From Sarea resinae (Eukaryota), in contig JAPEUD010000027.1 of the NCBI GenBank assembly GCA_026026165.1, positions 62,001-126,000 of the forward strand: 64,000 nt of DNA, given 5' to 3'. A model generated the notes under the pieces. It saw only the letters and a program-made list of their open reading frames with translations, made no database searches and was not told the origin of the DNA. Below, in pieces: positions 2,248 to 30,085 of this stretch (its first letter is position 1; each line of letters begins with the position of its first letter). The position numbers and the translations under genes were made by a program.

Positions 2248-2519
2248 AGAGCTGCTGTTAGAACTCTTTCTACCTCTTTTACCTACAAAGGTTTTTAGGT
2301 GGTTTTAGCGAGCCAACGTAGGGGTAGGCCTGCGATGCGATTGCGTGCTAACAGTGTACAGTCTTTGTAGAAGGCTATTAGGCTATAGGGCTACAATGCT
2401 ACAGTCATAAGAGGAGATAAAGTCATAGAAAAGAAAAGTGAAATTAACCTCTAGCGCTGTCCTAGCGCGAACCTAAAGCTATCTAGTATATAAAGGAAAC
2501 AGAAAGAACTACTATCCTA

Positions 2520-3217: not shown

Positions 3218-3569
3218 ATAGAACGTACCTAAAACGTAGTGCGAAAAGTTTGATTGTGCGCGCGCGCACTAGATCACCTACGTTTTATACCTACACACCT
3301 ATAGCTAAGCGACCTCTAAGCGATAGGGAGAATGCCTAATGCAGACAGTTTAAAGCATTCACTCTGTCTATTCACTGCTGCCACCCTAGCGCGGCGTTTA
3401 GCAAACTAAGCAAATAGGACAAAGAACTCCCTTTATTATCTACACAAATTCACTGTTTGCAGCGAATAGCAACGCTACTAAGGCGCTAGCAAGACAAAGA
3501 CTTAACACTATAATGTTATACATCGCGAACAAAGGACCTAGAGGACTAGGTCTTAAGAGAGGAGGTAAT

Positions 3570-3878
3570 TGTAAGGGCTACTACTAATAAGAGTGCTGTA
3601 TACAGCTTAGCGCAGCGCAGGGTAACCACCTAGTGTGGTTCAGCAACGTTTAGGTAAGCTAAGCAAGGTTATTAGTTATATAGATCAATAGGGGCGCTAG
3701 CTATTAGGGCTAGTGTTTAGTGCAATTACAAAGTCAGTGCCTACTAGCAATATCTATATCTATAGTATTAGTTCTGCATCGCTAGGGTGACGCTAGCACG
3801 CTACAGTGCACTAGCCTATTCGATTATGCTATTCCTACCTACTCTACTATAGCTAGAAGTCTAGGAGGCAGTCTGACA
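3570..3878 (+). repeat. 3' LTR of the chromovirus
   Basis: Starts TGTAAG just after the polypurine tract and ends CTGACA, where base composition changes sharply. The partner LTR is outside the window. Confidence 0.65.
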
Positions 3879-6600
3879 TTGCTATAATAAGAATTAAATG
3901 TTTAGAGTATATTCTTCTACTAGTCTGCTAATTCTAGATTTAAATTAATATCTATAATAGTTATTGTTTTTATATCTAGAATAATAATACTATTTAGAAC
4001 TCTATATTAGTGATTTAGTATATATAGATCTTATAGCTATATAAATTCAGTATTAAATGATTTTAGTTTTACTAATTTAGAGGTAATAAGGCTATTTATA
4101 GCAACTATAATACTAGTCTTAATAGCTGCCTTAATTAAAATTAGGTTTGTAATATTCTTAATACAGTTTATACCTTTAATTATTATTTGTTTAACACTTC
4201 TAAAGAATACTTATCTAGTCTATACAATTAATTTATAAAAGAAGCCTTAGAGTTTATTAGACGCTTTTATCTATATTGCTATAGCTTTATTACTATAGAG
4301 GCTTTAAGTAGTACTAACAACTTAAGTTTAGTATATTAGATAAGAGTAATCTCTAAAATTAGTAAAATAGACTTAGATTTACACTACTAATATAATTCTC
4401 TTAAGTGTATAAGTTATTACTATAAACACTATGTTATTAGAGATAAATTTATAGTCCTACCTTAGATTAAGCAATTTAGCTATCTTTATTAGGATTGCTA
4501 TAGTTGTTTAAAGTAGTATAACTATAGTTAATATTGCCTAAATTAGTACTTGTTTAAAAAACTTAGTTTATTATACCTTTACTAGGAAAATTATATTTCT
4601 ACATGCTTAAATAGTAACTATTTAGTATTATAGGTTAGTAGTTATTCTCTTAGCATATATTGTATTTATACTAATTAGAATATTAGTTCTTAAATTTAGT
4701 ATAATAAAATACAATTAGTAGATCTTAGTAGCTTTAGTTCTATTATAGAGGTAGAGTATAAATATAACCTTATAGAAGATGTTTTAAACACTACTACCTA
4801 TACTATAAATCTAGGCTAAAGTTAGTAGTATAAACATTTAGACTTATAAATCTATTACTATAGTGTTATAGAACTATTTATTAACACTAGAATTGCTAAA
4901 CTCTATATTAATAACAACTAATTTAATAGGACTATCTATATATAGAGTAGATCTATTAACTTTAAGAAACTTATAGGTAATAAGGTTATAGGTAGGTGTC
5001 TATTTAATTAGTATTACTAATAATTTAACAATTGTCTTTAGTATAGACACTTACTTTATAAAGTAATTAGACTACTTAAAATAAGTAAAGAGAAAGTTAT
5101 ATATTATAAAGCTATTATAATATACATTATATATAAACTCTAGAATAAATACAGTAAATATAGTATTATATGCTTTCTAAGTATTAGTATTCTCTTTAAT
5201 GCTATAGTCTATAAGAAATTCTTTTTAGAATAAGATATTATTATTATTATTATTATAACTAGACTTTAGAGTTATAACTTCTAATTCTAAATTAAGAGTG
5301 TTATTATTAGGTTATATATTATATTATCTATATAGAATATATATATCTTCTTCTAGTTCTAAGGTAAGGTTAGGTAATTAGAATCCTAGTGCTAGCTATA
5401 CTTACTCTTATAGTATTAGTAGGTGTAGAAATTCTTACTTGCTTTAATAGTATTAGTAATAAGTAGTAACTAATATCTTTAGCTATATAGTGTTTAGTAA
5501 TCTTATAATCTTTATACAATAAATAGTGTTGCTAAATAGCTCTAAGGTATATAGTTTAGTAGTATTAGTTAACTAATTAGATATAGTTGCTGCTATATAT
5601 TATTTTAATTATAAAAGAGTGCTTATAAAGGCAGTCAATTAATTAAAAACTTATAGGTCTTAATAAGGTCTTTCTTATATTTATTTAATTCTTATATATA
5701 GTTATTAAATCTACTAGCTTTTACTTTTATTTTAAGACTAAGATAGATTTCTAATAGAAATCCTTCTTAAATATAGGCAACTAGTTTAGCTTTATTAGTA
5801 TAACTAGCTATTTATAACATATAGATCTTAGTAGAAATATAGGCACTTAGGTAATAGCTTTAGTTCTATATAAAACTTTCTTTACTTACTTTAATATATA
5901 TAGTGTATTCTAATTAAAAGAACTTTAATTTAATATTTAAAATCTAAGTTATTATTAACTTAAGTATAATTACTTTCTAATCTTTAGTAAGGCTAAAATA
6001 CTACTCTTAAGTAATGTTATTAGCTAGGTATTAGTGTAGAGTTATAAGGACTCTATCCTTACTATAATAATGTTTAGCGTTAAGTATTCTCTTAATAAAC
6101 AATTAACTAGTAAGTAGTTCTAAAGAACTTATAGGTGTAAATTATCTAATAACTTCTAGTTTTAAATTATATATACTATTACTACTAGGTATTTCTATCT
6201 TTATAGAGTTAATAGATTTCCTCTAATACTATAAGCAATATTTATTAGTTGTTTTAATTAGTAAAAACTAGCTAGGTAAGAATTGCATTCTAGTCTAGTT
6301 GTCTAGCAAGACTATAAGCCTATTATTTGCTATTATTAGCACTACTTTAGTTGTTAGCACTACTTTAACTACTTATATTAGAGTTTTTAATTGTTTTAGC
6401 TACTTAGCAACTATTATTAGACTATTTTAGATAATTTAACTTTGTTTCTAAGATAAAGCATTCTCTTTTATCTTAAGGAAAGAAAGATAGAAACAGCTTA
6501 ATTAATAATAAGTTAATAGATAAGTTTATTAAAGGTAATTCTAAAGGTTCTATAATATTTGTTTTAATTTAGTTACACTCTAAGTTAGATAGGTTAGTAG
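3879..6600 (-). mobile_element. Older, heavily RIP-degraded Ty3/Gypsy gag-protease relic, cut off at the chromovirus LTR
   Basis: Minus-strand de-RIP reading: aspartic protease 'VVID(T)(G)F..S.VD' (~4880-4918) and 'L.TNILIGMD......IDL....VTI.AC' (~4600-4700), then a pre-RT linker '..PELADQQKNMLQTF' next to 3879. The upper boundary is approximate. Confidence 0.6.
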
Positions 6601-7799
6601 TCTAAAACAACTCTCTAGTAGGTAATCTAGATACTAGATTTAGTAATAGTAGATGTTATAGTTGCTACTATAATTAATACTCTTACTACTAGGCCTCTAT
6701 TATAAATCTACTTTTAAGATAGTAGTGTAGTAAAGCTGTAATAGTATAAAGTCTAAGGCCTAGTTATTATTTACTCTAATAACTTAAACAAACAATATAT
6801 AGATAGAATAAAGTAGATAATAAGTTTAATTAATAATTTAAACTATTAACTAAATCTTAAGATCTATAATAATAAAATTATAATTAAATCTATAGTAGAG
6901 AATATAAGTAATAAGAATAAGCTAATAAAGTAGGTAAAATTAATGTTATTAAATTATTATCTTATATTAAGCAAGCTATTAATAATATAGTACTTATAAG
7001 TGTTCTTAAGATATTATATAATTACACTTATAAGGAATAAAGAGATATAGGTATTATTTAAGTGTTAATATTTGTTATAAGTGACTATAATTAGAAAGAG
7101 TTAACTTTGTATTTATATCTTAGTTCTAACTAAGAGTCTTATAATTAGAGGATATAACTATTACTTTTAAACAATTGCAAATTAGAATAGTTATATCTAA
7201 GTCTATTAGATTAAAATAGATAGAGTTAGTAAGTTGTATTTAAGAGTCTAGCAAATAATAATTGTAAATTAGGATATTTATATCTAAGTTTATTAGATTA
7301 GAATAGGTAAAGTAAGTAAGCTATATCTATATATTTTAATAATTATATCTAAGTGTCTAGGTTTAAATCTATCTAATAGTTTAATTTATAATTAATAACT
7401 TAGGATTAATAAATTAGATTAAATAAGTAGAGAATACTAAGGATTTAAATTAGCCTAATAATTAGATTATAATAGGTTTATAGGAATAGTTTTATAAGAA
7501 TAGGTTTAAGTAACTAAAACTTTAGAAAAACAGTTTTAATTTATCTAACTAGCAGTGTATATATACTACACTAATTAAGATTATAGTCTTATAGAATTAC
7601 TAGTAAGAATTAGTTTGTTCTAAAAGGATATAATCTTAGATTGCTATTAATACTAAGTGTAATATTAGGTGTAATAGGTCTAAATTACTAACTATAATAT
7701 TAGTCTAACTAATATAATAACTTGCTTAGCTAGAGTAAACTATATATACCTAAAGGCTAACTTACTAATAGTATTTTATAGCTATAAACCTATAAGGCG

Positions 7800-9000
7800 C
7801 ACCTAATAAAGAAAGCTATAGAATAGTATAGAACTAGAATTAAGTTATATAAGTAGAGTAATAAGAGTTGCTAAGTATTAAAGCAACTCCTATATAGAAA
7901 GACTTAAATACTAGAGATTAAGACCTTAGCATTTAACTCTATAAGGATAATAGTTATTAAAGTATAGAATCTATATATAATTATTATCTACTAAGCTATA
8001 GGTATCTTACTTTTCTCTACTCTACTAGCTACTAGCTATACTATAAGTAGCTACTTATTAGCGCTATTTAAGCAGCCTACTTAATAGACTTATCTTATAA
8101 TATAGATATTAAAGAAAATAAAAATTAGTAAATTAAACCTAGTTTAATATAGTGCACTATAAGATAAATAGATTTATTAGTTTAACTAGAATCTAAGCTA
8201 CTATAAGCTATCTATATTATAGCTATAAGTCTATATTTATACACACTATACTATTCTAATAAGTATAATAGTAAGGGCTATATATAGGTATAAAAGAATT
8301 GTATTATAGTTAATAGTCTTTTAGATATATAGTTAATAGTAATCTATATAGCTAAAAAACTTCTTAGATCTAGTTATAATTATATCCTATATCTTAACAA
8401 CTTATTTAGCTTAGTTTCTTTATTTAAACACCTTTAGAACTCTAGAATAGAAGCAGTTAGTATAGCTAGACTATATAGAGATCTCTTAGATTTTTTAGTT
8501 AAATTAAGAAATATATATTCTAAGTGTTAGAACTAAAGAGAAATTGCTATATATTCTTACTAAAAAGTTCTCTATATTACTTAGTAAAATAATAATATAG
8601 TTCTAGTTCTCTCTACTGTTTATAAGGCTAGAAATATTAATATATATATTATTAGTAAGTAATAACAACTTATAATAACTTTAACTAATACAGCTATTAT
8701 TAGATAAAGAGTTAGTAATAATATTATTAAGGATCTACTTATTCTACTCTTTCTTAATAATTATAACTACTATATAAACAATGTAGATTAAGTAGTAGAC
8801 TAGCTATACAACTATTTTAAGATAGAAAGAAAGATTCTCTATATTTAATTACCTCTTCTCTTCTAGATTATTAATGCTATAGCTTTTAATACTTAGTGTA
8901 TCTACTAACTACTTAGATATAATAGCTTTATATATTAGTAGTTCTAATTACAGCTTACTTAGTCACTTATAGCAGCTAGTAATAGTTTAAAGAGATAAAA
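7800..9000 (+). mobile_element. piggyBac-type (DDE_Tnp_1_7-like) transposase relic
   Basis: De-RIP reading: 'YILYLDNLFSSVSLFEHLRN.GIGAVGTAR' (8381-8470) and 'IPLFLDDYNHHMN.VD...DQLR....RIWLPLLFWIID....NAW' (8740-8900). Element ends were not found. Confidence 0.7.
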
Positions 9001-9387
9001 AAAGCCTTCTAATAAAGCTATTTAGACTATAGATACTACTAAAAAGGCTAGAGTTACTATATACTAAGAGGAATTTAGTAAGAAAAAAAGTAGTACTATA
9101 TATAGTATAAGAAAGACTATTAATTAACTAGTTCTTATATAATACTAGGTGAAATTAGTAGTAATAAGTAGAGATCTTATTTTTTCTAAACTATATAAAT
9201 ATATAAGAGGTGCTTTATTACTCTATATAGAAATAGTAAGTGCTAAAGAAAGTAGTATTAATAGAGAAGTATTAAACTACTTATTTTAGATTAGTCTATT
9301 ATCTTAGCTAATTATATAGTATATATCTACTTACTTAATTTTAATTTAGCAAGGTTAGCTAGATTACTAGCTAAGGAGATAAAAGAG

Positions 9388-9928
9388 TGTTAGAATTATA
9401 ACCTTAATTCTAGTTACTCTTAAGTATCTAGACTGTTATAGAATGTTATATAATAGTATAGATATATTTAGAAGCTTCTATAAACCTATAGAAGCTAATA
9501 AAACTCTATAGAATCTTATAAAACATTCTAGAAGATTCTATAGCTATACTAACTAAGTATTACTATATGCTAACTAAGTATTACTATATGCTAATTAAGT
9601 ATTTAGAACCTTTTAAAACCCTTAAAAATGTTTTAGAACTATTTAGAAGTCTATAGAATCTCTTAGATATCTATAGAACTCTATTATATAAGGGTTATAC
9701 AACTATCTCCTAACTTTCTTACAAAGCATATATTATTATCAGCCTATTACTTACAAATCACTTATATAATTAGTTATTACTAGAAGTTTCTAGTAAGACA
9801 GTTAAGTCTATATTTTAACTGCCTTACACCTCTATAGCTAGAATCTCTAAGTTTATAATATATAATCATTCTATATAATACTTCTTTAGCACCTTCCTCT
9901 ACTTATAACTTTGTGCTACCTTCTAACA
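9388..9928 (+). repeat. Copia 5' LTR (541 bp)
   Basis: Direct repeat of 30086-30588 with inverted termini TGTTAGAA/TTCTAACA. Carries a 21-bp triplication at ~9545-9605. Confidence 0.95.
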
Positions 9929-9940
9929 GGTTATAAGCCT
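9929..9940 (+). promoter_or_regulatory. Copia primer-binding site
   Basis: GGTTATAAGCCT directly after the LTR, a RIP form of the GGTTATG(A/G)GCCC copia-type PBS. Confidence 0.7.
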
Positions 9941-11019
9941 TAATAGCCTGCTAAAGAAGCCTATAATTTTGTGGGTTTCACCTATAGCCACTAAAATTCC
10001 TTTGAAAAAGAGTAGAACTTCCTCTTTTTCACCTAAAAAGACTAGGTCCTATAGTCTTTATAGTCCCTAGGCAGTTATATAGCCTCCTAGAGGTTATATA
10101 ACTTAACTTACAGATAAGAACCACTTAGAGTAGACTGCTTAAACTAAGCCTATACTTATAGATATTAGGTATACACACACTTAATAAGGATTTTTCTAAT
10201 CCTTTGTGCTGCCTTATAGGTATAATCCTCTCTGAAGAGAAACACCTATAGGAGAGCAAGTTAATTGCTTAATGTATGCTGCCTTTACCTAGATCCTATA
10301 GTACCTATAGCTTGTGTCTATAGAACTATAGTATAGCAGCTTGTGTTCTGCACACCTTAGCAGCTTGTGTTCTGCAAACAGCCTTTGTGCTGCAATTTTA
10401 CGCACCTATAGAACTGTAACAGTTTAAAAGTCACAAAACAGCCTTTGTGCTAATCTTTTATGCATCTATAGAACTTATAACAGTGGTGCAAAAGCATAAG
10501 ACACTCTTTATACAGCTATTCTACACATCTATAGAACTTATAAGTTCTATAGGTGTATAAAAGTCATACTAGTGTGATTCTACTACTTAGAGTAGAATAC
10601 ATATAACAGCTACATCAGCAAAAAGGGAGGTGTGCTACAGGTGACTACAGGTGCGCTGTGTAACCCACGTTACCCACGTTACAAACAGTCAACGCTGTAG
10701 CGCTACATGTACAGTAGTTCAGGTAGCAGCTACTGTAGTACTACATAGAATACACTGACTTTGTATATCTTCTACACAACATATTAGTGTCAACTACATG
10801 ACTATTCTTTTACCTACTAGTAGACTACAGTAGATTCTAGTAGTTATACTTACTAATCTCTAGAGATTAGATAAAATACATGTAGACACCTACTGTATTA
10901 CTAATGAATACAGAATACACGTGTATTTTAGTAGCTACTACATAGCACAGATAACTTATTACATAGAGTCTACACAGTGCGAAAAATAGTGTTAATTATA
11001 CAGCGAATCTACTAACTAG

Positions 11020-13319
11020 GAGAATAGGTTAGTTAGTTGACAATAATGTAAACTATTAATATACTACCTAGCATCTGCTCTAGCTAATTAGGTTTGTAAT
11101 TTGACTTGTTCTTTAGGTGATAGGCCTAGATCCTCTAGATCCTCTCCTCTATTATTGCAGAACCTTTCTGTTAGAACGTGGACTTTTCTAGGAGTCAAAG
11201 TATTGCTATTGTTAATAGCTTTCTTTATTAGTAGAAGGATAGCCTCTTACTACTAACTGCTTAGAAAATTCTATGTAGCTACCTAGCGCTAGTAGACCTC
11301 TAGGTGTTTGTTAGCTGTTATGTTATTTGTTAGCTGTTATATCTAGCTAGTTACTTACTACTTGCGCTGTCTCTAGTGAAATCTTAAGAAGTAAAGCTCT
11401 CTTCTTTCTATTTAGAGAGAGTGTAATAGAGTGCAGTAGATACAATGCATATTAGCTAATAGGTGATCTGTTTAAAAGCATCTAATGTATAACTAACATT
11501 TGCTAGTTTCTAGACCTTGTTAAAGAACTCTTTAAGTATAACACATATAATTACTAGGTAGAATAATCTCTCTTTCTTTCTCTAAAAACTGTTAGATAAC
11601 TAAAACAAGTAGAGAGATTTATATATAGATAGATATATCTTAATAGTTAAAACTATCTTAATCTAGTAGTCAACTTACTTTCCTCTTAAGTCGTTCTAGT
11701 TTAGTGAGAGGCAGATTGTATAGGTCTACTACTAGTTAATAACACTGTAATATAATATATCCTTGTTGCTAGCTTATTCTAATTAATAGCTAATAAGATT
11801 TGATTATTTAGAGTTAGTAGGTAGATAGTAGAAATGTCACCTAATAGTCTTACTTACTATAGGTTTAATATATACAGGCAGCTCTATTTTGTATTATCTA
11901 GAGTCCTTAATAAGATAAGGAAATTAATACTCTATCTTAATCACCTTTGCCTTTATATAAGCCTAGTCCTATATGTTAGCACAGATAGTAGCTATACTAT
12001 CGCTTTTTAGGAAAGGGTTCTAAGTAATAACATATATTTTTATTATTGCCTTAGCTATTAGATAAATATCCTAATGCTTATAGCGCAGATAGCACTCTTT
12101 TAAATGCGCTTAAATCTTTACATATGCTCTTATATCTAGTGTAAGAAGCTAACTTAAACCTGCACTCTAATTATTTGTAAATGTCTATAGGGTGCTAGAC
12201 AATTAGTGTAGCGTTCTTAGTACGTCTATCTCGTTAAAAACATGTGTAGAGGTAGAGTCTAAGTTAATGCTAACTGCTCTAGAATAAGGACTAGAGAATA
12301 AGAGTCCTTTGTTATTGCTTAGAACCTATTATCTATAAGCAAAATCAAAAACAAGTACTCTAAGAGCAAGACTTGCTAATAACAGTAGAGGTAGTATTAA
12401 CAATTTGTTCTAGAAAGTGTCTGTTAACAGATCCTGCATGTAAAGCTCTTCTAGCAGTTGTCTGTTAAAAAGGTTAGGCTTCTAAAGGATATCTCTTTAG
12501 TTAGTTTGTTTTGCTGCCTTCTAACTAGTAGTAGACCTATGTATAGGACGTCTGTCTGTTAGAAGATCTTAGAATCTTATAGGTGATTCTCTTACAGTTT
12601 GATTTGCCTTACTACTTATTTGTTGCTGTTCTACTAAGTACAAGGTAGCCTAGGTGTTATTAGATATATATTGTCTGCTTGTTAGTGTACTCTCTTTGCA
12701 ATTAACTAAGTTCACTTTAATGTGATTTAGCCTAAGGCTTGTTATTTGTCTTCTTATTGCATAAAGACGCTCTTATTTATTCAGATTCTTTCTAGGCAGA
12801 TAATTGCGCCTAGATACTTCTTTGTCTGTTAGTGTACTTATCTAGCTATTAGGAGTCGCTAGTATAAGTTGACTTTCTAGACTCTTAGTGCTGTCTAACT
12901 AATATCCTCTTCTCTAAGTAGGTGTATTCTATGTTATTAGATTAAGTGAATTATCACTATCTTCTGCGTTTTTAGCAGCAGATACAGCGCTAACGTTAGA
13001 TAACTAACTAGGTAGGCTTTGTGTTAGAGACATTGTAGCTTGCTTATAATTCTCTTTATCGCTATCTAATAACATCAGCTATAGTTGCTCTTAGACTAGA
13101 GGAGTAGTAGTAGCAATCACTAGATCTAAACTATGTTTAGTCCTTTAGTAGTAGTCTTTTATTAAGTGCAAGTATTGCAGAAGGCAACTGCTTTGTTTAG
13201 CATAGATTAGATAAGTAGAGATAGAAACAAGCGTTACTATTAGTAAAGTAGTTGAGTTTTTATTCCTTAGCAGACTAAACATCTTGCTAGGAATAAGTCT
13301 AGAGTTGTTTAGGAGGCAT
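11020..13319 (-). pseudogene. Cargo gene: low-complexity N-terminus plus DUF6532-like C-terminal domain, with introns
   Basis: ATG at 13319 (MPPK..). De-RIP motifs 'YVITQNPFP.......ICADIWDQAC' (~11950-12030), 'VVDLYNL......LLDQD.FNY.D', 'LFHPVII.VI..EFF...DAF..I...LICIVSTALYH.LSEWKEG.F...DF' (~11375-11570). GTAAGT introns present. Confidence 0.55.
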
Positions 13320-13849
13320 TGTAAAAGTTACTAGCTTCTCTATATAGAGCAGATTTAGATAGCTAGGAGTTTAGTGCATAAGAGACATTAGCATTAAATA
13401 GGAATTTAAAGAGAGAGAGAATTATTAGTCTAAGTAGAGATAAGCATTGTCACTTAAATTACATCTTTGCAAATTAACAGACAATTATGTCGCTGTTAGG
13501 ACAACTTATGTGATTAATTTAGATTTATACATGCTTAGACTAATTAAAACAACACTAAACAGAACGAAAGAGACTAACTTAAAGTAGATTAGCAGATGTT
13601 AGCTTCTATACCTTGTTAAAGTCATCTAGAAGACACTTATAGTTTAGAACCAACTATTGCTGCGATCCTTACTAGGCTGCTAGAACAGAGTATAGTAGAA
13701 GAGTAGGTGATAACAGTCCTAAGAGCAGCAGACATGTATGTCTGCTGCTCTTAGTATTATAAAGTCGCCTATAATCAAATAAAAACTTATGTCAGCTGTG
13801 TTTGTTACACGTCCTATTTGTCTTTGTCTCCTTTGTATATTGTAGGGTT

Positions 13850-16160
13850 AATAGTAGGGGTTGTTATCTTTAGTATCTATATTATCTTCACTACTAATCT
13901 TAACTTTAACTTGCAGCAGAACTAGCAGATTGTTCTTCTTTAGAGCTGCGTTATTTAGGATACCTCTTAACCTCTAGGTAGCTATAAGTGTATTCTTAAT
14001 TGCAGACTTAGTGTTAATAAATCGATACAAACTCACCTCGCTGCGCTAGCTAATGCAGTGAACCTTATTAAGTGCCTATTGCTTAGAGGTGTCTATATAA
14101 TCAGGTTTAAAGACGACTGCTAGATTCGCGCGAATTAAGGTTAAGCCTAGTGACATTGTGCCTATTGTCCTAACTAAGTAAAAAGGTTCTAAGCTAGAGA
14201 ACATATCTATAGTGCCTTAGAATCGTTCTACTAACCTTAAGCGCTCTGCTATAGAGATTCCGCTATAGAATAGAGCAACTAGCTTGCATCTAATATATTT
14301 TATCCACTGTATATCTGCTGTTAGCCTAAGTGTGTTATCTAGTAGACAAATGCCACTTACTATTGCAATAATAAAGGCTGTGATTAGGAATACAGTAAAG
14401 ATAACTATCTTTTCACTCTCTATCCTTAAATTCACTCCTATATTATTAATAAGATTATCTAGTACTTTTAATTTAGAGGATAACTAGCTAAGCATTTCTA
14501 GATTGTTATACAACAGACATAATTCCTAATCCTTAGTGGCTATAGACCTAACGCTTAATAAGCTTTAGTCTAACCTAGCTAGATTAGGGTAGGCAAGGCC
14601 TAGGAATAAAGAGATAATTTGTAGTCGCTATGCGTATTAGAAATATATTATTAAAGTGATGCGTTATCCTTTGTTTAACTCTAGAATTTAGTTTGTTCTT
14701 GCTACTGTAATAGCTTACTGTTGTTTGTATGCTGTCTTCTAGCAGTTATTGCTAAACTAGACTGACAATTTATATCTGTAGAATAGCAGGAGGTTAATTA
14801 GCAGGTAGCTGTCTAGGTTGACTGCATTTTTATCCTGTTAGATTATTAGCACGCTAAGGAAGCTAACAAAATTCTAGGCATATTAATTAAAGTCTTTATT
14901 AGTAGAAGGCAGTCGCAGTCTGTTAGGTTTTGCTATGCAATTAAATAGATTTTTGTACTGACTTTTAATAAAGTCTAACTTTTTAGGCAAGCATTTTTGT
15001 CTAACGTAAGAGGGATTAGTTGTCTATTAGGTATATATAAGAATGTTTACCTTCTCTCTTAAGTCTCTAGGCACAATAAACAGAGTGCTAGAGAGAAACC
15101 ACATTATAGGCTAGTGTTCCTTATAGCTTTGTCTTAAGGTAGTTAGGTCTTAGATTAGGTTAGTGTTCTTTGATTTAATAATGTGCGCCTTATCTACTAC
15201 TATCTGCTGAAATTAAGTTTCTGCCTACAAATTGCAGCGAAGTCGCAAACACTTAAACAATATCACTAGGATAACATTTAATCTCACGTGTTTGCTACTA
15301 GAGTCTGTTTCTATTAAGTCTGCAAACTTGTGTTCCTATTAGCTGTGCTTAAGAACTATTAGGTTCTTAGCAATCTATTATGCAGTGAACGACTTTTAGT
15401 ATTCTGTCACCTACATGCAGGTGAGATATACTAGGCATATAACTATATTCGCTCCTCTATCTACAGTGATTTAGGAGGTTATAGATCCTAGTTAACATAG
15501 GCATTGTATCTTATAGAGGTTGTCACTAGGACACTTAACGCTGCATTTAGTATTGTTATCTATATTGTCTAATAAACACAAGTGTAAGTAAAATGTTATA
15601 TAATATTTAAAGTCTTATGCAGATAATACCTACTACTAGCCCTTAGATATCTTCTGTTATAGATTCGCTAACTCTTTATTATGTCTAAGTGATTATAGTA
15701 TAAGGTCTGCAAAGTAGCAATAAGAGCTAACGTTATTAGTGTCTGCTAGTAGATTAAGCGTTAGCTATTAATTTAAGTACATATTAAAGAGACACTATAG
15801 CAGACACGCACCTTTCTAAACCCTATCCTATTTGCTAAAAACCCCTCTCTAATTCCGTTGCTTTTGTTGCGTAATATAAACATAATAGCTGTAGCTTAAT
15901 GCAGTAGTAGTTAAATAGGTGCTTAAAGGAACAGTAGCTTTATAGGTATTTAGGTTGTTAATGCAGTGTGTTTAGGAATAAGGAACATAGCTGCTATATC
16001 CTTCTACATTTAGAGTGTGTTGTGTTAAATTGCTAGACTATTTTAAATAACTGTTTAGCGTTTCGCTATCACTAGGTTCGTTCTCTTAATCAGGTTATCT
16101 ACCCTCTCTAATTCGTTATACTATCTGCTAGCAAAAGCACTAAGGTCCTAGAGGCCTACA
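13850..16160 (-). pseudogene. Cargo gene: SNF2-family helicase/ATPase core
   Basis: De-RIP motifs in the correct order: 'LLPHQATAIMFM..E.NGIRGGFLADGMGFGK|T' (intron donor at 15811), 'CPS...QCPC' insert, 'IVICP.HL..MW..E', 'IVVDEAH' (15183-15203), 'WFLSGTP' (~15081-15101), 'EKMVIFT.FP' (ORF 14217-14435), 'GLNL..A..VVFEPDY....QQAL.KVHRIGQ' (~14045-14150). Confidence 0.85.
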
Positions 16161-16248
16161 AAGTAAGGACAAAAGTCAGTAGAGGTTGTCACCTATTATC
16201 CTAGTACTTACTAGGCAGACAATGTTCTGTGCTATATAGATAATTGTC

Positions 16249-16385
16249 AGGTAGCAGATTATTATATAGAGTATTATTAGGTGGCAGATTATTATATAGA
16301 GTATTGTTAGGTAGCGGATTGTTATTTAGAGGATTATTAGGTGGCGGATCGTTATTTAGAGGATTATTAGGCGGCAGATCATTGT
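16249..16385. repeat. 30-bp tandem repeat, about 4.5 copies (10-aa DPPPDD-like unit on the minus strand)
   Basis: AGGTRGCRGATYRTTAT... recurs every 30 bp. Confidence 0.85.
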
Positions 16386-16876
16386 TTTTAACAGGTAGAT
16401 AATCCTTGTCATCGACGTTATCTTTGTTGCTATTATTGTTATTAACGTTATCTTTGTTATTATCTTTGTCCTTAATATCCTCTTTATTAGCATCCTTGCT
16501 ATTAACGTCTTCTTTATCAGCCTTATCTCTTGTTAGGTTATATGCAAGCTTATTAGAAATGTCATCTTTAATTTGCAGTGATAGGTCTATAAGGAGTTAG
16601 CTCTGTAGTAACAAGGAATAGTACTGCGTTTAAGTCTAGCAGCTTACGCTTAACGTTATAGCGACCTAGCTTAGGAACTAGTGACAGACGTTGCGTTTCC
16701 TTCAGCTAATATAGTGATAACTTAGGTGTGCTACTAGACTGACTAACGCCTGCTGCAAGGCCTAGCAACTAACCCTTTAGTAGGTGTTAGCTAGTCTTAG
16801 TAGTAGAGAGTAAGGTTGTATTTAGTGTTATTAGCGAATAGCCTTGTCCTAGATCTATAACTAGCAATTTATTTGT

Positions 16877-17000
16877 AGACAAGCCTAGCAACTAACTCTT
16901 AGACAAGCCTAGCAACTAACTATTAGACGAGCTTAGCAACTAACTATTAGACAAGCCTAGCAACTAACTCTTAGATAAGCCTAGCAACTAACTCTTAGAC
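16877..17000. repeat. 24-bp tandem repeat, 5 copies, flanked by a ~110-bp direct duplication (~16720-16830 and ~17035-17145)
   Basis: AGACAAGCCTAGCAACTAACT(C/A)TT units start at 16877, 16901, 16925, 16949 and 16973. Confidence 0.9.
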
Positions 17001-17756
17001 AGTCGTTAAGTTTTCTATAGCAGAGGCGACAACGACTTAGGTGTGCTACTAGACTAGCTAACACTTGCTGCAAGGCCTAACAACTAACTCTTTAGTAGGC
17101 GTTAGCTAGTCTTAGTAGTAGAGAGTGAGGTAGTATTTAGTGTTGTTGCATTTAGGTTTGCATAATGTGTCTCTAGTTAGATAATTAAACAGTCTGTTGC
17201 ACTAGACAGTTAACAACTGTATTAGGACTAGACATAATACCTTATAGCAGACAGTGCATATACCTAGTCTAGGTCTTATCTGTATAGAAACTAAGTCATT
17301 ACTAGCCTGCTTAAGGTTTCTGCGTTTTACATCCTATATAAGGTTAACAACTAGAAATTAATGTACTCCTATAAGGAGACACTTACAACATAGAATACAA
17401 TTAGTTGTAGGCCTAACTTAAGTACTAGTACAACCTCTTTATTGTATTCTAATCTGATTCTCTCTCTCTCTATATCTGTCTTAATCTTGTTAATAATCGC
17501 TGCTTATAGGATAAACCTAGCAATAATATTACAGATACTATCTATAGTTAGAGATAACAGTAGGAAAAGTCAGGTGCTTATCTTGTTATCTATTGTTATA
17601 TACTATTTAGCTAGTCAGTTGTCTATTAACTGTTAGTAAATGTTAGTTAATAGATAAACGTATATACCTCTTACCTATTAGTAGTCTTATAGGAGGAGGT
17701 GCTGTGTAGATAGTTAGTAGATAAGAAGGTATTAGTGTACAGAGAGTGGCAAGGCT

Positions 17757-18265
17757 ACTAGGCAGAAGGGCATTAGAGTCAGATTAATTGTCTGTTAGCT
17801 GTTAGCAAGTGCTATTCGATCGATATAATTAGATGTCTCCTACTTATAGGTGTCCTTATAAGCCGCTAAACAGTCTAGTTAGTGGCTTTATACTAAGAAG
17901 AAGCTAGCGTACAGATAGTACCTGCTAGAGGACTACTAGGTAGAAGGGCATTAGAGTCAGATTAATTGTCTATTAGTTGTTAGCAAGTGCTATTCAATCG
18001 ATATAATTAGATGTCTCCTACTTGTAAGTGTCTTTATAAGCTGCTAAACAGTCTAGTTAGTGGCTTTATACTAAGAAGAAGCTAGCGTACAGATAGTACC
18101 CGCTAGAGAACTACTAGGCAGAAGGGTATTAGAGTTATATTAAATGTCTATCAGCTGTTAGCAAGTGCTATTCAATCAATATAATTATATGTCTCTTACT
18201 TATAGATGTCTCTACAAGCTGCTGCAATGTCTGTTTAGTGGCTTTCTACTAAGAGAGAGCTAGCT
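17757..18265. repeat. 178-bp tandem repeat, about 3 copies (exon plus intron unit)
   Basis: ACTAGG(C/T)AGAAGGG starts at 17757, 17935 and 18113. Confidence 0.92.
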
Positions 18266-19959
18266 AGCAAGAGGTAGCTAAAGTACTAGAGGCGTTAGAT
18301 AGAGGTAACAGCAGGGTTCTACTTTTAGATTGCAGTTCTTTCTTCACGTTGTCTTACAGCTTCTTACAGATATCTTGCACGATAATAAATAGGTGTTCCT
18401 AATTGTAGCTCTATCTAGCAGCTTGTCTTCTGATTTAGTCTGCAGACAGCATTAGAAAGTTAGCAGACTGTATCACGTCCTCTATTATAGTGTTGACTGT
18501 ATAATTTCCCGCTGCTTAAAGGTTAGTGCAGCTATAGTCAGATAATACTTGCTAGATAGCCCCTTGTAATCTAGTCTTAGCTTTGTTCGACGTAACACCT
18601 AGATTTAGGTACGCTTCTAATAGCCTCTCTTTTATAAGTTCTTATACTTAAGGATTAGGTCTTACAACTGTCTCTTGTTCTAGTTAATAAACTGCATCCT
18701 ATTATATCTCTTGTTAGTCACGTCTGTTGTATAACAAGAGAGTAGCTTACTTAGCTAGATCGTTATAATATGTTAAGAGGCAGAGAGATAACTAGCAAAG
18801 AGAATAAGTAGGAAGTGATTAAGGCTAAGAGTATAGCACTAAACTTAAGTTTAGTATAATAAGAATAATTAGGCTGCTAGACTAAGAGAGATATAACAAG
18901 CTAAAAGATAATAACATAAGAGAACACAAGTAGAGAGCTAATAAGGCTAGAGATAAAGTTAATATCTTAATAGAACGATTATCTGAATTAGTAACAAAGT
19001 AAGGTTATATCTAGTAGGAATTCTTAATTAGGCTAGACTAGGTGGTAGGGGTTTTATAGCTTTAATATTAGATGAATAACGCGTTAGCGCAGCGCAAGGT
19101 GAATAAGAGTAGCAGCAGCAAATAAGAGTAGCAGAAGTGAATAGAGATATAAGGTGAATAGAGATCTAACTAAACAGAACAAAGAATAATAACATTGTAA
19201 CGCGCAAGAAAGAAGACAAAGAAACGTTGCTATTGTCGACTGTTTCTAGCTATTAGCACTTGATGCTATTAGTATATCTAGTGCGCAATATTGCACCTCT
19301 AACTAATATTATATCTGATATACAATATATTATATAGATAATAGTTTGCTTGTGTTTTAGACAGCTATTAGTGTAGGAGTAAGGTTAAAGCAATATAAAT
19401 AGCAGCACTGCTTGTATAGTGTCTACTTAATAATAAAAGTCTAATAGTTAGTCTACTACTTAAGTAAACTGTCTGCTAATATAATGTTAAGATAGAGTCT
19501 TATAATAGAGTATTGACTGTAGTATATCTAGCATTTTAATATTAAACAAAGAGGTAGAGCAAGAATAGTAGAGTAACACTGCATATAAAATCTGCATTTT
19601 AGCTAATAGCTGCTACATGCGTGCAACACACATTAGAGGCACTACCTTATATTATGCAACAGATAAGCAGTGTACTAGGTAGTTAGGTAGGTAAGGTACT
19701 GTAGTAGATACAGTACCTACCTAGGTATATCTTAGACTACAATGTAGTAGGTAGTTGCAGTCTACTTAGATTTGTATAGCTACTGTATAATAGCATACTA
19801 AGAGATATACAAATATACTTAAGAGTACCTTACTGTAATATCGTGCTATAGTAGTCCTTAACAATAGACTAGAGTACGTAGTACTATATAGGAGCAGATT
19901 AATAACTAATACAATTAGTAGATTATCTTGTTTGCATACAAATTAAGTCTAGTTTATCA

Positions 19960-21715
19960 CTAAATTCATCTATGTCTTTAGCTAAGGCAGGTCTTTAAAT
20001 CACTTAAACGCTAATTAGAGTAGCTAACCTGCTATACAAAGCTAATCAGACATTTAGACTAGTGTATAGTGTTATCTATTAGTCGACTTTTGTTATATAG
20101 ATAACATAATAGACCTAAAACAGACACTAATATATAGTTTACACAACAGAACGTTATGTGACTACCTCTAGAGAAGGTGCAGTAGACAATTAGGTTTCTT
20201 TGCTAAGGACTAGAGAAAGCTTCTGCTAAACGCCTACTGTCTTGCTGTAGTTACATGTTATAGAGATGCTTTTATTATCACGCTAGACACGCTTATTGTA
20301 ATTAATCAAACTATCTAATGCGCGATAATAAGAGCGCTCTTTTAGTCCTTCTAGTATGCTGTATTTGTCTGTGTATATAATCTTATTAGCAAGGCAGATA
20401 GGAATTTCGTCTAATACATAACAACAGTTATCTCTTAGTGATATCTAATAGACATGTATAGTATATCTACTTACTACTACTTAGGTAGCAAGATAATAGC
20501 CTCTTCTAAGGCAGACTACTTTTGCTTGCATGTTTAGAGCTAGTAACAAAAGGTACTTAGTAGGATAGGAGTCCTGCGTTGTTAGTTCAGGTCTAATCCT
20601 ACAATTAAGTGATATACTATCTGCTTGCTCTTCTTCTAAATCGTAAATTTCTGCAATCTGTTTGTTTGTTAGGTTTTGTGCAGACATATATCTCTTTAGA
20701 GATGCTAGACAATGACAATTAGTAGACAATTGTCTCTTAGGTAAAGATAGTCTAGTTATCTAGACATATGTTATTAAATAGTTATAGTGTTGTGTTATAG
20801 GCTACACTCACGATTTTTAAACGTATAGTTTCTTCTAGAAAAAGTTCGAAGGCAGACTCTAGCTCACTATTATATTTAATCTAAAACGTCTAGTAGTTAA
20901 CGTCTAAGTCTATCTAAACTATCTTATAGCTAGGTATATAGCGTCTAACGACTTGTCAGATAGATTCTATTAAAGGGGATAGAAGAGAGTGTATCTAGGA
21001 TTTAAAGGCGTTCTCTCTATAGTATATATCCTAGATAACATAACGTTTAACTATCTAGTATATAAGGATATAGACATTAAATAGGTATTAGATGTTACTT
21101 ACTAGTTAGAGTCTTTATGCTAGAAGTTGATATTTCTACCGCGCTAGTAGATAGTAGTGTACTACTATTATCTTTGCCTTCTCTATCATTATTATTAGTT
21201 GTGTCACTGTCTGCTGTAAGAGGACTGCGTTCTCTCTTCTCTTAATCTCACTCCTTTTTACAACAATCTTAGATAACAACGTATAAGTATTCCTAATAGT
21301 CTGCCTATCCTTAAGGTCGTTGTCTAAAGTAATCTGCTAGGGCTAAAGAGAAGTCTACCTGCTAGATTATATCTCTAATCAAATTATTAACTTGTTTAGC
21401 CTCTGCTTAAACAGTGTTATATATCTTATGCTGACTCGCGATGCGTTTCACGCAACGTTGCAATGCTGCCTTGCTTTTATTTGTTAGATTAAGAGTATAA
21501 TATGCGTCTGACAGCTAATAATAAGACAATTGTTTAGATCGCCTAGACAGTTAGTTTAAGGGACTAGAGAGTAGACAATAAAGGCTACTAGCAGTTAGCT
21601 AACAAGGTGCTTTTCTCTACTAAGTCTCTCTAGTTAGTGAGGTGCTAATCTTATAGAATCAGGTGTACTATATAGGTCTGCTAGAGTTTGTGCTTTTTCT
21701 AGGTGAGAGCGACAT
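19960..21715 (-). pseudogene. Cargo gene of unknown function, divergent from the transposase
   Basis: ATG at 21715 (MSLSPRKS..) opens a long frame broken only by RIP-type stops. GTAAGT (~21100) and GTGAGT (~20810) donors. Includes ORF 20481-20729. The 3' end is approximate. Confidence 0.5.
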
Positions 21716-21859
21716 AATAATTGTGCTTAGGAAGTCCTATCCTAATATAAGCTTAACACAAAGGTATATGTTAATTAACATATGTGTAGAAATAGAAATC
21801 ACTGCCTTATCTACCTACATTAGTATAAACGTATAGGTTGCCTATATACTAACACTAAT

Positions 21860-24800
21860 GTCACCTAACTAACAACTTAGTCACTCTTTAGACTTTTAAA
21901 CTCGCCTCTATAAATATAATGTGCAAAGCAATCACCTACACTATTATATGCATAGCAACAACTACTAGAGGATATTGCAATGTTAAAATGCTATATATAT
22001 AGTTATAATACAACGCACCCTCTATAGTTGACTTTATATATAAGACGCTGCGATCTACTATTGTTTAAGAAACGCAACAGACACTAAGGCAAAACAGCAG
22101 ATATTAGCTCTACAATTAACAACAACACTAACAGCTACATTAACTACAACATTCTAGCAGATATCTATAGCAGGACAGATATCGACTACGCTAAAGATCA
22201 ACTAGATTATAATAGTAGTTAGTTGTTAGATAGAGTGGCTTATAAGACTACGCTATATATACAATCGCTAGCAAAGCTTATAGCTATCTAGTTAATAGCT
22301 TATTTATTAGCAGGCGAACTATATAAATTGCCTAATCAATCGAATAAAAGACACAATATATACCTTAGTCAATCTTAGGCGCTGTTTAATACTGCTAAAG
22401 ACTACAGACTAGCGCAGTAGTTTCTACAGAACAACATTACCTTAACTGCAATTAATAAGTTCTTTAATAACAACATTATAGGATAAGACTGCTCTAGTTT
22501 CTAATCTGTATATACTCTGCGTCAAAAATTAGACAGGATATTAACTATGCCTAGAACGCTAGGTAGAGAATAGGAAGAAATATCTTTCTTAGGGTATTAT
22601 AATAAGAAGATACAAATGTATCTTAAAGATCTCTTAAGATGTATTTTGTTTCTACTTAGACACCTACAGTTTAAAGAGGCGCTTATATATTTGCCTGTGA
22701 AATTGTATAGGGAACAGAATACTTAACTATACTTAGATATACATACTAGGAATTAGTAGTAGCAGACTTAGGTATACAAATCACACTTATCTAGTATTAG
22801 ATATAGTGCTAACTGTCTACTAGGATACACTGCCTGAAAACTCGACACTAGTCCTAGTAATCTATGCGTCTAATAAAACTTATCTGACTAATTTCTTAGG
22901 CGACAAGCATATGTAGCTAATATATCTTATAATTAGTAACTTGCTAAGCACGCTTTAAGCTAAACCTTTATTGCAAGCGACTATCCTCTTAGGTCTTCTA
23001 CTAGTTTATCTAAAGCAAATCAAAGCGAATAATATTTAAGAGCAGAATTATTATTATTAACTATACTACAATAGACTAGATCAGGCCCTTTAGACACTTA
23101 GAAAGCTAGGAGAGGATAGTATACAGATACTATACACAGATAGTTATACCTAGAATTGTTTTCTATAGCTTGCTAGGTAGGTAGCTAACTATAAAGAGGT
23201 TGTTGCAATATGCAGTATTATATAAGGCTACTATCTAGTATATAAATGTCTATAGGCTGACCTTAGTTGTTGTCTAGAAGATAATAACTAGATAGCAAGA
23301 GACTTAGCAAACTACTAGCAACTTCTAAAGGAGGGCAACATACAAACGCTAGAGCAGAAAGGTGTTAGAAAGACACTTAATAGCCTCTAGTTTCTGCTAG
23401 GTGTTAACATCTACAATCTGCTAAAACTAGATCTACTGTATTAAGTTTATATAGGTATACTACAGCACTTTCTAAACTAGCTAGCAGCATTCCTACTTCT
23501 ACACAAACAACTAGACACTTTTAACTCTCTATAGACTGCAATGCTAGCGTATCTAATTTTTAGTCTGCTAACTAAGACCTATCTCTAGATATTATAGTAG
23601 TAAGAGAAGGAAATGCAGAATGTAGTGAAATTCCTAGTCCCTATTACAGCTATATTATTAGCGAATCTATCTGTATAATAGCACTAGGATTTTAAGCAAG
23701 CAATAACATATATATAGTCCTTTATTGACTTTATCTTCTTTGCATAACTGCATACTTATAACAACAAAACCCTTAAGTGTATAGACCTTCTACTAGGTGT
23801 CTTCTATAAACACAAAGCTATTTTCTAGAGATTTTGTGCTAATAAAGGAACAGTAGCTATAGCGCGCTTAGCATCCTAAACAGCATGTGCTGCAGCGTTG
23901 CAAAGAGCTTTGCAAAGAGCTTCTTAGCTAACAGCTAATAGAAAGCAAAAGCAGAAACACAGTGCACATTCTAATAAGGGTTAGAGAAGAGAAGACAGTA
24001 TATAGTAGGCAGAGGATTGTGTAAGAGAAGAGGCTCTAAAAGCAGGTGCATATTTTAACTTCTCTAAGATGCATATTATTAGTCACTATATATCTATAAT
24101 CAGATAATTTAGGTCTCTTTACAGCTTCTCTACTAACTGTTTAGAGGCTCTCTACTAAACAACAGTAAAGTTAGGCTAGTAAGCATTAAATTATTAATAT
24201 ACTACTCTATAGATATTGAAATACTATGACTAACGTTTCTATTTTAAGGCGCGTGAGATAGCTGTAGAGAGGCTGTTATCTCTTAATATAGTACAGACAT
24301 TAAATACTAGATTGCCTATCCTTAAAGGTTTTAACAGATATCTATTGCGATTATTAGAACAAATTATGAAACTAGGTCTACTAGACTTTATAATCGCCTT
24401 GCTAACGTTTATTAAAACGTTGTTTAGCAAACACAGTCAGCTAAATATTAACTAGCAGATGTTAAACTTATATGTAAGTAGCTAGCTTATAGACAGAGTA
24501 TCTTCTACAATGTGTTTCTAAGAGGCAAATAACAACTATAAAGATGTGTTAGAGTTAACTATCTAATGTACAACATTGTAGCAGAGTGTAGGTAGGAGAA
24601 ACAATTAGGTTTAGGTGAAAGACAATGTATACTATCTAGAGAGACATAGCACAGCTAACAGATAGGCGCTAGTTAGCACCTATTTGTTAGCTTAATATTA
24701 ATTTCTATTTAGTCTTACTATGCTAGGGTTTGCTCTAATATCACTAGCTTTAATCACTTAGGTATAAGCTAAACAACTAGAGAGTTAGGACATAATACAT

Positions 24801-24985
24801 TGTCTACCTATTGTTAAAAGGTTAGACAACATAGCTGCTTATAGTAAAGGCTGTCTAATAACTAACAAGGAGTGTATTATACGCGTTAAAGATATAATAG
24901 GGCTAAGTTATGTAATTAAGATACTTTCTAACAGCTTAGATTGTAAAGAACGTTTCCTAGTAAACAAATATATTGACTAAGAAAC
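21860..24985 (+). pseudogene. Plavaka transposase
   Basis: De-RIP reading: 'PWAPFDT..DYRLAQWF', 'YLKDPL.CI.FLL.HP.FK..L.Y.P....RLYSDMHTGNWWWQTQ', intron 22772-22823, 'DTLPENSTLVPVICASDETHLTNFSGDKHMWPIYLTIGNLP...R.KP', 'PDLLHQV..G', 'FNFPKMHIISHY..MI..FGSL..FSTD.SEALH...VK.GW.ASN' (~24054-24190). Start and end are approximate. Confidence 0.9.
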
Positions 24986-25372
24986 ATACTTTACTAAATA
25001 GATTTTAGAAGTTAACAGAAGTTCTAGTGTAGCTTATATAGCTTATATAGCTTGTGTAGTACAAAATCAACTGCCTAATATCACATAGCTGTTAGTAGAC
25101 ACTGTGTAGTACAGATAGTATGTACAAGTTCTACAGAGATATTATAACAAGTATCTACTATATATAACCTAATAATAAGTACATAGAAGACAATGTATAT
25201 CTATATAGAGATGTATTTACCTTTATATCTACTAGTAGACAAGTATATATACTATAATATTGCTATATAACGCTGTAGATATACTATAGCACTACTATCT
25301 ACATAGAACTAGTACTATATACTATGTATCTACACTATATCTACATAGACCTCTTCTCTTTTTGCTAATATA

Positions 25373-29990: not shown

Positions 29991-30085
29991 AAAATTATGC
30001 ACCTACAGCAACTGTTATAAAAAGCAAAGTTTGATAGGAGTTCTAAATTGCATACCTATCCTATAGAATTAAGCTTAAGAGAGTG

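Follow-up and report, generated by a model that had tools for sequence, protein, structure and literature searches.

A RIP-mutated SNF2-family ATPase gene as likely cargo of a PlavakaB-type DNA transposon in Sarea resinae

The SNF2 gene and its RIP damage

The stretch analysed here, called the window, comprises 64,000 nucleotides of Sarea resinae (assembly GCA_026026165.1, contig JAPEUD010000027.1, positions 62,001 to 126,000 of the forward strand). On its minus strand lies a gene that we confirm to be a dead copy of a spliced SNF2-family ATPase gene, mutated by repeat-induced point mutation (RIP). Several lines of evidence support its position inside a DNA transposon of the PlavakaB type, 14,758 bp long (10613–25370). 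The gene has the following parts, in window coordinates.

13851–16100, minus strand: RIP-inactivated SNF2-family ATPase gene (RIP-tolerant alignment to the relative P0003, searches of PDB and of representative proteins, 41 TAA/TAG stops)
About 16100–15812, 15742–15634 and 15568–13851, minus strand: exons
15910–15896, minus strand: Q-type motif, LLLH*
15847–15812, minus strand: Walker A, EGFLANRIGFRK, with its T at 15742
15743–15811, minus strand: intron 1, 69 nt, GTGCGT...GCTAAC (branch site)...CAG, between K and T of the Walker A GKT
15569–15633, minus strand: intron 2, 65 nt, GTAGGT...TAG, borders inferred from the frame change and the family alignment
15495–15548, minus strand: KCSVKCPSDNLYKIQCLC, the Cys-rich insert that follows motif I and precedes Ia; signature of the family, H...CPS-x(9-11)-C(C)PC
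15183–15194, minus strand: motif II, DEAH seen as DKAH (GAA to AAA)
15081–15092, minus strand: motif III, SGTP seen as SSTL
14046–14060, minus strand: motif VI, HRIGQ seen as HCIS*

An earlier note on this DNA had listed the Q motif, Walker A, DEAH, SGTP and HRIGQ in this order on the minus strand, with Walker A split by an intron at 15811 and a Cys-rich CPS...CPC insert after motif I. Indeed, motifs Q, I, II, III and VI are all present in order between 15910 and 14046, and every change in them is a C-to-T or G-to-A transition. The 69-nt intron (15811–15743) separates the K from the T exactly where it had been placed, and the insert (15548–15495) turned out to be a conserved signature of the family. 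The putative intron 2, 65 nt at 15633–15569, brings the gene back into frame.

The identity of the gene rests on protein searches and alignments. Using the stop-masked frame, phmmer returned 31 matches in PDB at E ≤ 10, 30 of them SNF2-family ATPases and the remaining one LytH; the best was Chd1 (E 0.0017). Against 1.84 billion representative proteins there were six matches at E ≤ 1e-3 (best 2.3e-7), five of which carry PF00176 (SNF2-rel_dom). The named proteins among the six come from Chaenotheca gracillima, Sclerophora amabilis and Oculimacula yallundae and are annotated as hypothetical. We also used a custom RIP-tolerant Smith-Waterman alignment which, for a penalty, can read a T before A as a former C and an A that follows T as a former G. 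The score against the family protein P0002 was 321, with shuffled or reversed targets reaching at most 56; plain BLOSUM62 scoring gave 152 (control, 33). This doubling of the score under a CpA-to-TpA model is further evidence for RIP as the cause of the damage. The alignment to P0003 covers residues 5–697 of 713 (window 16078 to 13860), and identity rises from 22% as read to 31% once TpA is reverted to CpA or TpG.

The wider setting agrees. The window is AT-rich from 1 to about 30600, with a G+C content (GC) of 0.20–0.44. Over 1–30000 the TpA/ApT index is 1.6–2.1 and the (CpA+TpG)/(ApC+GpT) index 0.29–0.89; beyond 31000–32000 GC is about 0.5 and the two indices are 0.45–0.9 and 1.09–1.43. RIP is called on these two indices with customary thresholds, and the composition of 1–30600 is a RIP signature. 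For the SNF2 gene itself the indices are 1.64 and 0.80. Its in-frame stops are TAA or TAG in 41 of 41 cases, with no TGA, and the minus-strand frame of 13600–16400 as a whole holds 58 stops, 57 TAA/TAG and one TGA. Transitions make up 860 of the 913 listed differences between copies (contigs of one public run against 12000–31999). All the hallmarks of RIP are thus present, namely TpA excess, CpA/TpG depletion, transitions between copies and TAA/TAG-only stops, and the gene proved to be RIP-mutated like the rest of the element, as the earlier note had it.

Stop-to-stop open reading frames (ORFs) in 12000–18500 are all short, the longest measuring 131 aa. This frame, with many N, P, L and D residues (NNPLNNDPPPNN...), lies on the minus strand at 16201–16596, just upstream of the SNF2 gene. 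It arises from a 15-nt tandem repeat, and is unusual in that all other frames of this part are interrupted; it may form a low-complexity extension at the N-terminus or be no more than repeat DNA.

The surrounding element and its amplification

The borders and contents of the element that appears to carry the gene are listed below.

10611–10612: left target-site duplication, TA, matching 25371–25372; weak alone, TA being the commonest dinucleotide here
10613–10630, plus strand: left terminal inverted repeat, CATCAGCAAAAAGGGAGG, pairing with 25353–25370
16201–18288: spacer rich in repeats, separating the SNF2 and transposase genes, which are divergent
16201–16596: 15-nt array, its minus-strand frame N/P-rich and stop-free
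16720–17147: two 113-nt repeats flanking a 24-nt array of six units
17619–18288: repeats of about 178 nt, three to four units
22346–25037, plus strand: RIP-inactivated Plavaka transposase gene, near full length (RIP-tolerant alignment to P0027)
25353–25370, minus strand: right terminal inverted repeat; its reverse complement, TATTAGCAAAAAGAGAAG, is the left repeat as altered by RIP
25371–25372: right target-site duplication, TA

The 18-bp inverted termini begin CATCAGCAAAAA and pair at 18 of 18 positions when four transitions are allowed, with no transversions. In a transition-tolerant search of 9929–13860 against 24350–25450, the pair 10611–10630/25372–25353 ranked first. Published PlavakaB termini are CATCA..TGATG, with target duplications of 2 or 3 bp (PMC12730594, section 3.2.2). 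The left end at 10613 has this form, which RIP has altered at the right end, 25370; the flanking duplications are TA/TA here and AA/AA at a 566-bp relative described below. Termini of this type read CATCAGCAAAA/TTTTGCTGATG, the former being the first 11 nt of the left end and identical to the starts of the curated Plavaka-11_AB and PlavakaB-1_GaAu in the supplement of PMC12730594. By chance the pattern YATYAGCAAAA would be expected 0.29 times in the window, yet it is present at three places, 10613 (plus), 25370 (minus) and 28028 (plus), each of them an element end. We accept the 14,758-bp borders because of the curated termini, the enrichment of YATYAGCAAAA, and a depth step with a contig joint at the right end.

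Between these ends a transposase gene was recognised by RIP-tolerant alignment to proteins bearing PF18759. The Panus rudis protein P0027 aligns over residues 39–865 of 867 to 22346–25037 (scores 171 and 442; reversed control 71), across about 66 stops, and after reversion of TpA the window sequence shows HTGNWWW, ASDKT and GD..WP.Y.TIGNL. This gene is separated by 6 kb from the SNF2 gene, the two being divergent. The earlier note had placed the SNF2 gene inside a DNA transposon, and PlavakaB-type termini at 10613 and 25370, together with the remnant of a Plavaka transposase, point to the same conclusion.

The spacer is variable: another genomic copy, represented by one contig, lacks 336 bp of it (joint 16831 to 17168). 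The 24-nt repeat of 16862–17000 is absent from the rest of the window, and the arrays at 16720–17147 and 17619–18288 may bind proteins. About 7 kb of the element (10631–13850 and 18300–22300) has no assigned gene. Pfam searches of 18300–22000, stop-masked on both strands, found no family, TET/JBP included; Pfam missed the SNF2 gene too, as RIP lowers its sensitivity. Matches to TPR_8 and DUF4359 in the stop-masked Pfam scans were discarded as sub-threshold chance matches. Further cargo, such as TET/JBP or DUF6532 genes, could be hidden by RIP in the two unassigned parts.

One public run contains the locus (0.54 of sampled words), and its contigs were aligned to 12000–31999 at a likeness of at least 80%. 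The depth summed over these contigs, in bins of about 667 bp, is not a copy number, and the fold figures drawn from it are rough.

Every bin of 12000–25339: 4623–9290, the lowest bin being 18003–18669
SNF2 bins: 6070–7116
Transposase bins: 6157–9290
Unique flank, 30676–31999: about 349

Summed depth in this one run is thus about 17–27 times (about 20 times) that of the flank and stays level over the parts with the SNF2 and transposase genes, which suggests that SNF2 multiplied along with the element. At the right border it changes from 9290 to 38906 between bins 24673–25339 and 25340–26006, with a contig joint at 25372. The complete unit probably reached some twenty copies before RIP struck, and this copy is now inactive. 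These rough, summed figures support the earlier claim that the gene had been multicopy as part of the element.

A Ty1/copia retrotransposon, the most abundant repeat in the window by summed depth, holds the 14.8-kb element in its leader. The features of this retrotransposon, with depths on the same scale, are as follows.

9388–9928 and 30086–30588: long terminal repeats (LTRs) of copia, 500–540 bp, with TGTTAG...CTAACA ends; LTR bin depth 132894, about 380 times the flank
About 25373–30085, plus strand: copia body, with readable gag, integrase and reverse transcriptase frames from about 25380 to 29800; depth 33450–40234, about 100 times the flank
28028–28593: non-autonomous PlavakaB-type element inside copia, 566 bp, similar to a miniature inverted-repeat transposable element, with termini CATCAGCAAAAAT... 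and ...TTTTTACTAATA and AA/AA flanks; depth of its bin 4006, about 11 times the flank

Likeness of the 566-bp element to the 14.8-kb one is limited to the terminal 12 nt, and its far end, TTTTTACTAATA, is a RIP form of TTTTTGCTGATG. A contig joint from 28025 to 28594 skips 568 bases and represents the empty site in other copia copies. With this empty site, the small element therefore shows the ends of the family and its 2-bp duplication in this genome. The two LTRs were considered as the ends of one clean copia and rejected, their outer 5-mers (AAGAG and GTATA) being unequal. Because the 5-mers differ and a purine-rich tract precedes each LTR, this copia may be tandem or recombined. Further LTR copies near 3940–4463 and 24821–25324 were dropped, since their scores were no better than those of shuffles.

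To the left of copia, 1–4000 is RIP-like too (TpA/ApT 1.8–2.1), yet its GC is higher (0.39–0.44); no ORF of at least 90 aa and no match to any protein tested was found there. The RIP block therefore extends past the left end of the window. The part from 4001 to 9387 is much harder mutated (GC 0.20–0.24, (CpA+TpG)/(ApC+GpT) about 0.3), and no likeness to the copia body or to the proteins tested could be detected; perhaps it represents an earlier copy of copia, with the LTR at 9388–9928 in common. The RIP block is now resolved into a copia element bearing two Plavaka-family insertions.

Relatives of the gene and rival explanations

The gene belongs to a family that is sparse and patchy over Pezizomycotina, with 30–40% identity between members. 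A word-indexed search with P0003 gave 12 proteins at E ≤ 1e-10, mostly singleton clusters, among them proteins of Aspergillus thermomutatus, Helicocarpus griseus and Penicillium chermesinum and several metagenome proteins. Members are about equidistant from the window copy, with 28–33% identity after reversion in 15 of 16 comparisons. Among intact relatives PF00176 is found, besides the five matches mentioned above, in all seven further members, and Helicase_C (PF00271) in three of the six and three of the seven. The N-terminal extensions of P0002, P0005, P0007, P0014 and P0016 showed no similarity to proteins of the Plavaka loci.

Across the family alignment, motifs I, II and III show little or no variation, and on this ground intact members should be active ATPases. 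In alignments of nine and of 11 members, H123, C139, C149 and C151 (P0003 numbering) are invariant; the CPS...CPC sequence is therefore a conserved insert between motifs I and Ia, and the H...CPS...CPC arrangement is probably a metal-binding (zinc) knuckle. An AlphaFold2 model of P0003 (predicted local distance difference test, pLDDT, 70.5; predicted template modelling score, pTM, 0.61) has the two-lobe RecA-like SNF2 fold, which is thus seen on a relative and not on the window copy. The best 50 of at least 500 Foldseek matches of this model in PDB are all SNF2-family ATPases (E about 1e-16 to 1e-13), including Chd1, ISW1, Mot1, Rad54 and CSB. Searched against PDB, the family profile placed Rad5 first (9e-39), followed ten orders behind by Rad26 (8.6e-29). 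Proteins of the Rad5/16-like group, to which Rad16, Ris1, Lodestar and SHPRH also belong, have a RING finger inserted between the lobes and, in Rad5, HIRAN as well. In the 12 members with an SNF2 domain, Pfam detected neither RING nor HIRAN; on these traits the family falls outside that group, and Rad5 is its best profile match.

The earlier note had asked whether the closest homologues sit beside Plavaka transposases, and two loci, one with a family member and one with an SNF2-type lobe, point that way. A metagenome scan with a four-member SNF2 alignment left 70 distinct loci, of which one, L001 (an 11,344-bp contig), matches almost the whole protein; the rest share the motif I region alone, and tblastn of the L001 ORFs against all 70 loci revealed no further family locus. 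The SNF2 ORFs of L001 (1396–3683) match P0002 at 6e-45 and P0003 at 3e-40 in blastp, with homology along their length, and carry GIGKT, DEFH, SGTP and the H...CPS-x10-CPC insert as in the family. About 850 bp downstream, on the same strand, are two ORFs matching PF18759 (E 1.8e-46 and 6.1e-25), followed by a weak match to DUF6532 (E 0.0013; 19.2 bits, the cut-off being 24). The SNF2 and transposase genes are separated by arrays of 13- and 18-nt repeats, which recur in inverted form at the contig end (CTGTCCTCCCAAA / CCAAAATGTCCTG at 1–250 and 3778–4130 in one orientation, 11150–11344 inverted), and look like CACTA-style subterminal repeats. A CATCAG at 234–239 of this contig may or may not be an element end.

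Using the L001 transposase as query we found P0023, a protein of 2001 aa from Chlorociboria aeruginascens that is 52% identical to it. Its single gene model combines Helicase_C (304–411), a Plavaka domain (887–1200) and a weak, sub-threshold DUF6532 match (1655–1784; E 0.0028), and is probably several transposon genes fused by the annotator. The helicase lobe finds SNF2 ATPases in PDB, and the gene order is common to P0023 and L001. Turning back to the window, a RIP-tolerant scan of 3500–31500 on both strands with the L001 ORFs gave matches for the two transposase ORFs only, at 22358–24401 on the plus strand (scores 125, 166 and 210; controls at most 76). Segments of P0023 match the same place, and P0027 gives a better alignment there than the L001 ORFs. 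The L001 ORFs pre564, o4325, o7250, o8876, DUF6532 and o10423, and the remaining segments of P0023, gave nothing above controls in 1–31500.

These results suggest a reading in which the SNF2 gene is cargo of the Plavaka element, and which we hold to be likely. Several observations weigh against it. For the gene itself, Pfam found no family at E ≤ 1 on three stop-masked minus-strand frames of 13600–16400; the window copy fails to reach the PF00176 and PF00271 thresholds because of RIP damage. Concerning the element, the pairing score of its termini (20) is no better than those of control comparisons (21.8 and 22.2). The depth rests on one run, which is possibly the window's own source, its limits as a sum over contigs apply to every fold figure given above, and the stretch covered starts at 12000, so that the left end at 10613 is outside it. 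As to the relatives, genomic context was read for two family members, the window and L001, the 15 others being singletons or small clusters, and none of 24 Plavaka protein matches was linked to the same contig as any SNF2 family protein. The L001 contig is without element ends, so its SNF2 gene adjoins the transposase but may or may not lie inside the element, and in blastp the P0023 helicase lobe matches neither the family nor the L001 SNF2 ORFs at E ≤ 1e-3. In the window the SNF2 gene is oriented away from the transposase, whereas in L001 and P0023 both share a strand, with SNF2 upstream. Additionally, its RIP-tolerant score is 321 to P0002 but about 64 to the L001 SNF2 (reversed control 68), and because this lies at control level, membership of L001 rests on its blastp matches to P0002 and P0003 and on the Cys signature. 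The association of SNF2 with Plavaka could therefore reflect separate captures. Finally, the functional role (chromatin opening, anti-silencing or help with repair) is inferred only, as is the aid to transposition suggested in the earlier note.

The rival that survives best is a one-off capture, in which a host SNF2 gene was picked up by the Plavaka family of this genome and passively amplified with no role, L001 and Chlorociboria being accidents or unrelated helicases. The greater nearness of the window gene to proteins of the P0002/P0003 type, its differing orientation, the occurrence of family proteins as singletons in sequenced fungi, and the lack of detectable kinship between the P0023 lobe and the family would all fit. 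We nevertheless consider it unlikely. Both family members with readable context, which share the rare Cys signature, adjoin Plavaka transposases, and a third locus, P0023, has an SNF2-type lobe in the same position. Moreover, the window gene is no fragment but complete in length, having introns and an upstream region of its own, and the sparse, patchy distribution at 30–40% identity is typical of element-borne genes.

Less probable still is a composite or nested repeat, in which the SNF2 gene would belong to another mobile element or segmental repeat in or beside Plavaka and was co-amplified with it. There is room for one in the unassigned parts of the unit (about 3.2 kb at 10631–13850 and 4 kb at 18300–22300), the arrays at 16201–18288 could mark an internal junction, and SNF2 helicases are reported in other kinds of transposon, Inton/Enton (PMC3627910). 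Against this, depth is flat, without a change at either SNF2 border in bins of about 667 bp, neither a second pair of termini nor a second transposase or integrase was detected within the unit, and the two genes are paired in L001 as well, where they lie closer together, 850 bp apart. RIP can spread into adjoining single-copy DNA, and the entire 1–30600 is RIP-like, but a host SNF2 gene degraded by such leakage outside any element is very improbable for a gene that lies between matched PlavakaB termini, with a summed depth about 20 times that of the flank and many diverged contigs.

Possible role and comparison with known systems

Taken together, we think it likely that the SNF2 gene is cargo of a 14,758-bp PlavakaB-type cut-and-paste transposon, now killed by RIP and once amplified with it, and in intact elements it may provide a chromatin motor. 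The structural part of this reading, an SNF2 gene in a Plavaka element, is where that likelihood belongs; an anti-silencing role has perhaps half of it. In intact elements the transposase would act on CATCAGCAAAA ends and move the element, leaving 2-bp duplications. The SNF2 protein would be a Rad5-like two-lobe motor core with neither RING nor HIRAN but with a probable zinc-knuckle insert after motif I. By ATP-driven translocation on double-stranded DNA it might open or clear chromatin on the element itself, such that ends and promoters stay accessible and heterochromatic silencing is countered. Such a role would parallel that proposed for the TET/JBP dioxygenase of basidiomycete Plavaka, and likewise for VANC of VANDAL. 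Motors of the Rad5 or Rad54 kind assist break repair, and the main alternative for the same protein would be repair of the excision break.

A broader and more tentative proposal, to which we would give somewhat worse than even chances, is that an ascomycete Plavaka lineage has long carried its own RING-less Rad5-like SNF2 motor with a private zinc knuckle, opening its own chromatin or freeing its ends of proteins, and that it is the source of the patchy orphan SNF2 genes of Pezizomycotina. If true, divergent and patchy fungal SNF2 'hypothetical proteins' would be transposon cargo, not host remodellers, and the motor would be a counterpart of the TET/JBP demethylase of basidiomycete Plavaka. 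Accessory genes are rare in eukaryotic cut-and-paste transposons, and the few known (TET/JBP in fungal Plavaka/KDZ, VANC in VANDAL, PAG in red algae) suggest self-directed epigenetic manipulation; with an SNF2 motor on a transposon, these functions would come to include chromatin remodelling driven by ATP. It would also offer a directly testable system, transposase with or without SNF2.

Plavaka elements were reportedly first described by Iyer et al. in PNAS in 2014. In the literature searched, which did not cover that paper although it may bear on the point, no SNF2 gene is described in Plavaka or EnSpm elements, and two mentions of SNF2 there concern fusions of host and transposable element genes and a SWIM domain. 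Transposon-borne SNF2 has precedent in other kinds of element.

Among solved structures the closest comparison is Rad5 of K. lactis (PDB 6L8N), the best profile match (E 9e-39), which likewise has a large insertion between the lobes. The family differs from it in having no detected RING or HIRAN in 12 proteins, in its own H...CPS...CPC insert, and in its low identity. In concept the system resembles VANDAL with its anti-silencing protein VANC, a factor of a DNA transposon acting on its own chromatin (10.1101/2025.02.11.637652); VANC is an unrelated protein of another superfamily in plants, and for the gene described here anti-silencing is a hypothesis. Inton/Enton (Kapitonov et al., as cited in PMC3627910) also have an SNF2 helicase beside a transposase, thought to act in transposition. 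They are another kind of transposon, and the likeness comes from the citing passage, not from helicase sequence.

Giant Plavaka elements of red algae measure 17–19 kb, carry cargo with predicted chromatin- or DNA-modifying domains (PAG1–3), and have tandem repeat arrays next to the accessory gene. According to the portion of that report available to us (10.1101/2025.02.11.637652), their cargo comprises a methylase/SET protein and a putative 2-oxoglutarate (2OG) oxygenase with a ParB-like domain, with no SNF2 motor named, and their hosts belong to another kingdom. PlavakaB of Agaricomycotina (CMCT/CACTA-like; PMC12730594) has a PF18759-type transposase, CATCA..TGATG termini and a 2-bp duplication. 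The word 'SNF2' is absent from the portions of its text and supplement examined, as is 'helicase' from those of the supplement. In basidiomycete Plavaka the TET/JBP gene is the only cargo found, according to the bioRxiv preprint on Bostrychia (10.1101/2025.02.11.637652). The window has a host with RIP and relatives of the Pezizomycotina type, and is therefore not basidiomycete. In both cases the element appears to carry an accessory gene that would act on chromatin or DNA, which is a TET/JBP dioxygenase in PlavakaB of Agaricomycotina and an SNF2 ATPase here.

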